A stretch of DNA of 64,000 nt from an uncultured Clostridia bacterium (GCA_944390285.1 CALXPN010000002.1:31762-95761), one strand, 5' to 3'. Counted from the first letter of the stretch, positions 14,398 to 14,590 are shown. A program made the numbers and translations. The notes: a model not told the origin generated them from the sequence alone.

Positions 14398-14590
14398 AAA
14401 AAACAAGTAACTATATATTTTATATAAACATCGTTTGGAAAGTAGTTTGAATATAGAAATTATTAAGTTAAATTTGTTAGGGAATCTCAGGCTTGTTCCT
14501 GAGGGCGCTGACAAATTTAACTTTAGAATTTCTATGAAAACTAGCTTGACCTTAAGATGTTTATATAAAATATATAGTTACTTGTTTTTT
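14398..14590. repeat. Hairpin/MITE-like element, copy A: perfect 35-bp terminal inverted repeats around a conserved ~123-bp core
   Basis: 14398-14432 (aaaaaacaagtaactatatattttatataaacatc) is the exact reverse complement of 14556-14590. Core 14433-14555 is shared with copies at 20474-20665 and 30034-30134. Confidence 0.7.

Follow-up and report, generated by a model that had tools for sequence, protein, structure and literature searches.

How does a short repeat come to lie between long, perfect inverted repeats that differ at each site, when the sequence that they enclose is shared? This question is raised by an intergenic element at positions 14398 to 14590 of a 64,000-nucleotide (nt) stretch of DNA from an uncultured Clostridia bacterium (GCA_944390285.1, CALXPN010000002.1:31762-95761; 26% GC; hereafter the window, with coordinates counted from its first letter). 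An earlier reading of the DNA (hereafter the original prediction) had taken this element, copy A, for one of three with a conserved core and copy-specific arms. Our analysis identifies copy A as a member of an undescribed family of small, noncoding, structured hairpin repeats situated a few nt past stop codons, and the core between its arms is an invertible segment, the orientation of which is polymorphic among closely related strains. We tentatively read it, with a probability of roughly 0.45, as a nonautonomous structured hairpin repeat whose arms would come from fold-back copying of the flank and would drive recombinase-independent flipping of the core.

Hairpin copies in the window

Copy A comprises a left arm of 35 base pairs (bp; 14398–14432; AAAAAACAAGTAACTATATATTTTATATAAACATC), a core of 123 nt on the + strand (14433–14555), and a right arm (14556–14590) whose end lies 10 nt from the stop codon of an open reading frame (ORF) for a 200-amino-acid (aa) membrane protein (14601–15203, − strand). 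Region reading and a repeat finder both gave arms that are exact reverse complements (35/35) with 123 nt between them, as predicted. The core recurs in inverted orientation in copy B (20508–20631, 124 nt, − strand), between perfect arms of 34 bp (20474–20507 and 20632–20665; 34/34) that are unrelated to arm A beyond AT-richness; the right arm is 13 nt from the stop codon of a TM2-domain ORF (20679–20978, − strand). Cores A and B, on opposite strands, are approximately 94% identical over 115 nt, and the 33 nt at the core centre form an exact repeat (two occurrences against zero expected). Copy C holds a truncated core of 39 nt on the − strand (30065–30103), in which only the outer stem (GGAAAGTAGTT ... 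AAACTAGCTTGAC) is kept; its left arm (30030–30064, 35 nt) starts 4 nt past the stop codon of an HD-domain ORF (29048–30025), and its right arm (30104–30138) is followed by a separate bidirectional terminator of proS (approximately 30140–30175). The long inverted repeat predicted for copy C exists, although its real length is 35 nt with one mismatch in the window strain and not the quoted 31 nt, which is the perfect part; the arms match at 35/35 in the comparison loci L091 to L094. All three copies are intergenic, as the original prediction held, and each lies 4 to 13 nt downstream of a stop codon.

The hairpin copies with perfect arms are real and highly nonrandom. The longest perfect inverted repeats in the window measure 35, 34, 31, and 30 nt, against maxima of 14 to 18 nt in 30 first-order Markov simulations of the 26%-GC window (repeats within 320 nt). 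A covariance model (R1), scored at every position of the 64 kb, recovered exactly the three copies, with 132.9 bits for copy A on the + strand and 36.1 bits on the − strand, and with 134.1 and 30.2 bits for copies B and C, respectively, on the − strand. The whole of copy A folds as the single long hairpin that had been predicted, at −91.9 kcal/mol (z = −14.7) for the strand reading GTTTGGAAAG and −78 kcal/mol for the other strand. Nested inverted repeats were also confirmed inside the core, with arms of 28 nt that are 89% complementary. At the centre of the core lies the module TAGGGAAT-CTCAGG-CTTGTT-CCTGAG-GGCGCT (14478–14509, + strand), which forms an apical stem-loop bordered by an asymmetric internal loop that is conserved.

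When 16 diverse cores were aligned, an unbranched hairpin of 41 pairs emerged. Compensatory double changes occur in 20 of these pairs, against at most 10 when the partners were slid; paired cells amount to 96.6% against 37 to 55%, and the covariation score is 0.36 against at most 0.09. No shuffle attained any of the observed measures. The apical stem covaries, being CTCAGG/CCTGAG in copies A and B and CTCAAT/ATTGAG at site C. Conserved unpaired positions stand at the base of the hairpin (GAATGGAAAG opposite CTTGACCGA), at TTGAAT opposite TGAAAA (a possible tandem G.A motif), and around the apical stem (GGAAT opposite GGCG), and a CTTGA(C/A) box is conserved at the 3′ end of the core. One U.G wobble is conserved on one strand in 10 of the 16 sequences; the remaining G.U pairs (11) and A.C mismatches (9) are balanced, so that neither strand is clearly the functional one. 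The compensatory changes could also stem from homogenization of a palindrome at the DNA level. Because homogenization cannot yield conserved asymmetry, the asymmetric loops argue for a sequence-specific reader; candidates are a nuclease or transposase that acts in trans on single-stranded DNA and an RNA-binding factor with the 3′ untranslated region (UTR) as its target. A structured small RNA family, one of the identities offered originally, is favored by the strong covariation and disfavored by the lack of a promoter signal described below, and the covariation itself has this second possible source in the DNA.

Orientation of the core among strains

The same chromosomal region was collected from other strains in gut-metagenome assemblies by exact-protein look-ups, and all comparison sequences are metagenome-assembled. 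None of the 10 other strains shows any change in the arms or flanks of site A, regardless of the orientation of its core. The core has one orientation in the window, L001, L005, and L007 and is reverse-complemented in L003, L004, L006, and L009. At site B, the window, L001 to L004, and L010 share one orientation, and L005 to L009 have the opposite one; at site C, L091 to L094 are opposite to L095 and the window. Sites A and B thus each occur in both orientations among 11 genomes, and the flips, which leave arms and flanks as they are, are independent at each site: all four combinations of A and B orientations are present among strains at most 53 single-nucleotide polymorphisms (SNPs) apart in 12.4 kb, and strains separated by 31 SNPs differ in orientation at both sites. 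The SNPs specific to the A core and to the B core are retained in both orientations, which indicates inversion in place and not conversion from another copy. Flipped cores at orthologous loci were also found in another species and subfamily (L179 and L223 against L201; L222 and L225 against L228). In these pairs an imperfect outer arm changes sides along with the core; this places the crossover in the outermost arm, away from any fixed position beside the core.

That all comparison sequences are metagenome assemblies bears on this result, since inverted repeats can confuse de Bruijn graphs, and a static palindrome could then appear in two orientations through assembly artefact. Contig names such as k119 and k141 imply final k-mers longer than the arms, which measure 34 to 35 nt. 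The arms are also shorter than the default k-mers of SPAdes-style assemblers, so that single k-mers would span each junction. The styles of contig naming point to at least three different assemblers, with L003 being long-read-like, and both orientations recur across contigs of several of them. Together with the short arms, this makes an artefact unlikely; the retention of each site's own core SNPs by both variants and the flipped cores in another species likewise speak against it, and we consider it very improbable. Elsewhere in L003 (1184–4729), gatCAB is broken into many short ORFs, probably by homopolymer frameshift errors of assembly; these are probably not real pseudogenes.

Copies also decay by internal deletion between short direct repeats across the hairpin. 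At site A, L002, L008, and L010 have lost 56 bp between AAATT direct repeats. Site C carries a full core of 121 nt, with the perfect arms mentioned above, in the four strains L091 to L094, and the window copy C has thus lost approximately 82 nt between AGTT direct repeats. Losses of 56 and 82 bp of this kind are typical slippage deletions across a hairpin. A 60-aa ORF that covers most of copy B (20446–20628) is a mechanical ORF, which inversion would destroy, and it was set aside.

Family, surroundings, and origin of the arms

An exact 28-mer of the core centre gave no match in the GTDB representative genomes, and the core centre with one N gave none in JGI metagenomes. A family search pattern designed from the three site variants, TAGGGAATCTCA-N(6–16)-TGAGGGCGCT, retrieved 104 metagenome loci in 29 sequence clusters; the invariance of the central motif among them is partly imposed by the pattern, and in L167 a neighboring copy with a variant centre was recognized by its other modules. 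Cores in the family measure approximately 120 to 145 nt. Most singleton clusters have perfect arms of their own, of 12 to 37 nt, including arms of complex sequence in L151 (31 nt), L203 (31 nt), L217 (35 nt), L152 (37 nt), and L220 (32 nt), for example ATCGTCCAAGACAGGGTCT and TTTCCGGTAGAGCTTCAAT. Among 19 elements of the copy A type from many metagenomes, mean arm identity was 0.52, the same as after shuffling (0.52), and mean core identity was 0.72, with the closest pairs at 0.85 to 0.90. A conserved core between copy-specific perfect arms, the inverse of the usual logic of miniature inverted-repeat transposable elements (MITEs) and insertion sequences (ISs), is accordingly upheld. The claim that the arms differ in every copy needs qualification: it holds in the window and in most singleton clusters, but arms are shared in some subfamilies. 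In the group most like copy B, an inner arm (an A-run and then GAAAATATGG) is conserved, and only the outer 12 to 19 nt are specific to the locus. The whole arm is locus-specific in the window genome, and the outer part of the arm is so in the family. In L155 (6980–9140), and also in L193 and L209, two family subtypes stand approximately 320 nt apart as a pair that is repeated 1.75 kb away; a composite transposon was considered for the clustered copies in L155 and dropped, as no transposase-like ORF stood out on reading the ORFs (without a scan against a domain library).

The host belongs to an uncultured Clostridia lineage with a best GTDB match for GatB of 83 to 84% identity; for ProS, identity to the 'Ca. 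Scatovivens' protein is 84%. Very AT-rich gut Clostridia carry the family, which is widespread among them. No member was found in 80 GatB loci (1.05 Mb) from relatives, which are too diverged to serve as empty-site comparisons, and weak covariance-model matches in two of these (L022 and L031) were other hairpin repeats. The three window copies lie within 16 kb around smc (25383–28931) and scpB (31641–32258), and no further copy was present within 20 kb beyond either end of the window, as checked in other strains. Over nearly its full length the window has a negative GC skew (−0.02 to −0.33), and the − strand carries most of the genes.

Among 61 distinct metagenome instances having a gene on both sides, 58 are downstream of at least one gene (28 between convergent and 30 between tandem genes), and 3 lie between divergent genes. 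The instances between tandem genes have the core on one strand in 18 cases and on the other in 12, so that its orientation to the upstream gene is unbiased. The element at site B lies between the TM2 stop codon and the ordinary terminator of the TM2 gene, with the gatC promoter on the terminator side, and the element at site C stands beside an intact proS terminator. Arm A is bounded by A6 and T6–7, and arms B and C by T-rich tails; a consensus scan called no canonical terminator in the arms, and the stems of the element are far longer and more AT-rich than the ordinary terminators of the genome. Promoter-like (sigma-70-like) sites were no more frequent than in shuffled sequence, and no conserved −10 box follows the TTGAC box. 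The window encodes a single recombinase, which is truncated and lies away from the copies in a tRNA-adjacent island; this island is absent from L091, and the sites in the strain group of L091 still vary in orientation. This island (approximately 36000–41200, about 5 kb; tRNA at 36184–36257) looks integrated and encodes the truncated tyrosine recombinase (36489–37052), a 445-aa protein without a Pfam match (37124–38461), and a sigma-70 family protein (38466–39083). At another convergent junction of the window, between an rRNA-adenine-dimethylase-like gene and a TSCPD gene, a 48-bp palindrome was noted (60297–60344); the same junction carries an insertion of approximately 5.2 kb in L097 (12442–17653) and L099 (3677–8888), encoding proteins of 1612 and 123 aa without Pfam matches.

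Searches for a known identity or a parent element gave the following. At the gathering threshold, Rfam found only a tRNA in the window, and a permissive search added only subthreshold matches to plant microRNA hairpins. No pair of 5′ and 3′ core modules 150 to 4000 bp apart around a coding region was seen in approximately 2 Mb of fetched loci, in which the sole module pair belonged to two separate elements. The element thus coincides with no annotated RNA in Rfam and with no IS having these ends in the 2 Mb, in agreement with the novelty claimed at the outset. There was no target-site duplication, with 0 to 4 nt of identity just outside the arms and no consistent length or motif in 19 elements. 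Plasmid and phage collections gave no match, and viral contigs gave only chance 17-mer matches, with arms A and C absent; a spacer-like or phage origin of the arms is therefore rejected. A RAYT or Y1 transposase gene was not seen among the genes called in the fetched loci, in which no systematic search for one was made. Resemblances to other systems (dif/Xer sites, CodY boxes, ssoA, hairpin ribozymes, k-turns, and the pC194-type CTTGA nick site) were dropped for lack of conserved spacing or motifs.

Sister species offer a view of the sites without an element. In L114, L229, and L231, with ProS 86 to 88% identical, the proS/HD site is empty and consists of 51 to 116 nt with ordinary terminators only; a fourth sister, L116 (ProS 89%), has a spacer of 263 nt that contains a degenerate fragment of the core 3′ end and lacks any perfect repeat. 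Of the two arms of copy C, the one on the side of the proS terminator aligned with the native intergenic sequence of L231 (TATAAGAAATAATGCAATTA against TATAA-AAATATTGCAAATA; shuffle p = 0.016) and with that of L229 (p = 0.044), whereas no alignment was obtained in the opposite orientation (p = 0.09 and 0.24). This fits one native arm accompanied by its inverted copy, as expected from fold-back. Alignments to the sisters at site B are uninformative, because the sequence there is of low complexity, and site A is not syntenic in the sister species, so that it offers no empty-site comparison. The TM2 terminators of L229 (approximately 19100–19140) and L233 (approximately 580–615) begin with (T/G)GAAAGTAG, identical to the 5′ module of the core that stands at this site in the species of the window, which suggests that old copies collapse to ordinary-looking terminators; each of the two may be what remains of an ancestral copy after reduction to a simple hairpin.

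The window also contains a near-perfect palindrome of 66 bp without a core (32679–32744), with arms of 30 bp and a loop of 6 nt. The last 10 codons of a Lys-rich 80-aa ORF (32471–32713) make up its left arm, and its right arm, an inverted copy of them, abuts the stop codon of a convergent ORF (32742–33656). Sister species have ordinary short terminators at this position, and L095 has a mismatch in one arm; GAAATTGAAA resembles the core 5′ module. Template switching may have produced this palindrome as a terminator, or it may be what is left of a family member after complete collapse.

In the mechanism that we prefer, the arms would not be transposase-binding ends. A nascent strand would fold back on the core hairpin, copy 12 to 37 nt of the adjacent flank, and return to its template (an intrastrand template switch), after which one arm would be native DNA and the other its inverted copy. 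Through template switching or short-homology recombination, the perfect arms would then cause the core to invert frequently, with no dedicated invertase needed, and the process of inversion would keep the two arms identical. A single template-switch mutation is known to be able to produce perfect hairpin arms, and such mutations also invert the loops of hairpins (PMC10710096), so that one process could account for both the arms and the flipping. The approximately 94% identity of cores A and B between unrelated arms implies that the core alone spread recently or that gene conversion was confined to it. A bolder version, to which we give little credence, is a new class of bacterial repeat in the form of a recombinase-free flip-flop: a mobile, structured single-strand hairpin that builds its own locus-specific arms by fold-back synthesis upon insertion and so forms a dispersed, self-installing module of phase variation. 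Given the position in the 3′ UTR and the strong difference between the strands, each flip would swap the structured RNA or single-stranded DNA hairpin seen by the cell.

Several observations weigh against fold-back copying. The alignments that point to a native arm come from one locus, are AT-rich and of low complexity, and have modest p values. Removal of the whole unit at site C leaves 43 to 45 nt, near the 51 nt of the empty site in L114, and this length would fit arms that arrived with the element. Mobility of the core was not observed, and no recent filled and empty pair was found between strains. The three window arms are all 34 to 35 nt, more uniform than random switching back predicts, and gene conversion could explain the similarity of cores A and B. 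Some subfamilies pass on their arms together with the core: the arms of L142, L157, and L160 are recognizably homologous (identity 0.85 between L142 and L157), with their differences mirrored on both arms, which shows concerted evolution of the two arms. In one abundant species, 45 instances share an arm of 17 to 18 nt inside a larger repeated unit. Finally, the conserved asymmetric loops imply a specific reader. The snap-back origin of the flanks put forward in the original prediction is thus favored only weakly, through the match of the copy C arm to L231 and L229 (p about 0.02–0.04) at a single low-complexity locus. The comparison of empty and filled sites that it suggested yielded the empty proS/HD sites of three sister species and no recent pair at the strain level, and the proposed search of related genomes with tabulated flanks gave arms particular to each copy in most singleton clusters and shared arms in some subfamilies. 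In the cluster of 45 instances (L125, L135, L146, and others), the core is embedded in a repeated unit of approximately 280 bp, present at least three times per contig and flanked by G+C-rich GTAG-type hairpins resembling repetitive extragenic palindromic (REP) sequences (GTAGGGGTCGC...GCGACCCCTAC). The locus that holds this unit in L183 has different REP-like repeats (GGGACAGTCCC) in L165 and L146; as a hotspot filled by other REP-like repeats, it was not interpretable as a filled and empty pair.

The arms could instead be older than the core. A MITE-like derivative of a transposable element that targets stem-loops might insert its core into the loop of a pre-existing terminator palindrome, the halves of which would become the arms, with inversion as a by-product. 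The copies do sit where terminators are expected, 58 of 61 being downstream of a gene, and the A6 and T6–7 bounds of arm A, the T-rich tails after arms B and C, the lack of target-site duplication, and the existence of the core-less palindrome with 30-bp arms at 32679–32744 all suit this idea, for which IS1272 offers a precedent by targeting inverted-repeat stem-loops downstream of genes without duplication (PMC5678879). It requires, however, native perfect palindromes of 62 to 74 bp at every site, which is implausible. Ordinary terminators in these genomes have stems of 8 to 12 bp that are often mismatched, the sister empty sites hold such terminators and no long palindrome, the proS terminator is intact beside the site C element, no canonical terminator was called in the arms, and no IS with matching ends was found in the 2 Mb. 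We regard insertion into palindromes as unlikely.

Two further explanations, each of which we hold to be somewhat less probable still, place the function in the core. In a programmed inverton, a dedicated invertase would flip the core and toggle a strand-specific function of the 3′ UTR, such as a structured RNA, a terminator or antiterminator, or an outward TTGAC −35 box. At each of the three sites the two orientations are both common and show no linkage, the core is strongly strand-asymmetric (133 against 36 bits) and thus presents different sequences to a transcript in its two orientations, the CTTGA(C/A) box is conserved at its 3′ end, and, as RNA, the fold of the strand reading GTTTGGAAAG is 14 kcal/mol more stable than that of the other. 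Yet the arms have no common motif that an invertase could recognize, the crossover has no fixed position by the core, none of the copies has an invertase in its vicinity, and orientation to the upstream gene is unbiased (18 against 12); a promoter inverton in particular is disfavored by promoter-like sites at the level of shuffled sequence, with no conserved −10 box after the TTGAC box. Alternatively, the element would be a conserved structured RNA (a cis-acting 3′-UTR element or a family of small RNA genes), vertically inherited and duplicated, with an immobile core and with arms that form a basal RNA clamp, free of sequence constraint and kept complementary by selection and gene conversion. 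Strong covariation, conserved unpaired loops, and the U.G pair conserved on one strand in 10 of 16 cores agree with this, as does the position just after a stop codon, where the element would be transcribed with the upstream gene; remnants at orthologous sister sites (the core 3′-end fragment in L116 and the TM2 terminators of L229 and L233 with GAAAGTAG) suggest age. The balance of the other G.U pairs (11) and A.C mismatches (9) nevertheless favors neither strand, perfect 35-bp stems are not what selection on RNA produces, and with frequent flipping a strand-specific RNA would be off for half of the time. Moreover, the distribution is patchy, with no copy in 1.05 Mb from relatives and three empty orthologous sister sites, cores A and B are approximately 94% identical while their arms are unrelated, and Rfam gave no match.

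Significance and comparison with known systems

If the fold-back origin is true, this would be a repeat family whose terminal repeats come from the target and not from the element. Template switching, for which the evidence so far consists mostly of inference from mutation spectra, would then be seen to act repeatedly and recognizably at a defined sequence in a natural bacterial system. Short segments appear to flip often in natural gut populations here, with no invertase or shared repeat motif found, and these loci would presumably enter metagenomic inverton surveys as regulated switches. A candidate protein or RNA partner, in poorly known, uncultured Clostridia of 26% GC, is suggested by the conserved asymmetric loops. 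Neither Rfam nor the annotated collections searched contain the family; the covariance model and search motif make it searchable.

Like MITEs, the elements are shorter than 300 bp, hairpin-forming, nonautonomous, and intergenic, with subfamilies within and between genomes, and one subfamily has identical short arms in many copies; unlike MITEs, they show in this genome no conservation of the terminal repeats from copy to copy and no direct target-site duplication, and no parent IS was found in the 2 Mb. REP/REPIN, ERIC, BOX, and Correia elements are also short, noncoding, multicopy, hairpin-forming imperfect palindromes concentrated downstream of genes. The likeness to the REP/REPIN type extends to conserved sequence and structure that suggest recognition as a single-stranded hairpin, and in one other species family members adjoin GTAG-type REP-like hairpins, as separate units. 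Copies of REP/REPIN elements, however, share their whole sequence and lack long, perfect, locus-specific flanking inverted repeats. A REP unit is an imperfect palindrome of 20 to 40 nt with a 5′ GTAG, two inverted units making a REPIN, whereas the core described here is a single hairpin of 120 to 145 nt with other conserved sequence. REP/REPIN elements are not known to flip. Integron attC sites differ at the base of the hairpin, which reads GAATGGAAAG ... CTTGACCGA here and not RYYYAAC ... GTTRRRY, and no cassette arrays or integrase accompany the copies.

Invertons, such as fimS, hin, and the switches of Bacteroides and C. difficile, likewise have a short segment between inverted repeats in both orientations within a species, and a PhaseFinder-like tool would presumably call the present loci invertons. 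They differ from these in that no shared repeat motif, adjacent invertase, or promoter or coding content was found, that the crossover is not fixed, and that the invertible segment is itself a conserved multicopy repeat. The terminal hairpins of parvoviruses and adeno-associated virus (AAV), in their flip and flop forms, offer an analogy only: a perfect outer stem encloses an asymmetric interior in two inverted configurations, reached through a hairpin intermediate. Those hairpins are viral telomeres, used in rolling-hairpin synthesis with the Rep nickase; the present element is chromosomal and internal, and no Rep was seen. Similar inversion of a loop between arms occurs in the hairpin-associated minute inversions of chloroplast noncoding DNA.

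Template-switch mutations resemble the family in recurrent homoplasious inversion of the loop, in homogenization of the arms, and, if the fold-back origin is true, in perfect arms that are an inverted copy of neighboring sequence (PMC10710096; see also PMC13100816 and PMC5941160). Such mutations are sporadic and strike arbitrary sequence, whereas the loop here is a specific conserved element at many loci and in many species, as though it recruited the process. IS1272 targets inverted-repeat stem-loops downstream of genes and, as here, gives no target-site duplication (PMC5678879). It carries its own transposase gene and conserved terminal repeats and replaces its target repeat; the family described here is clasped by the repeat and has no sequence relation to it. 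By the defining features of these classes, the family is not a MITE, a REP element, or an inverton, although it works like a blend of them.

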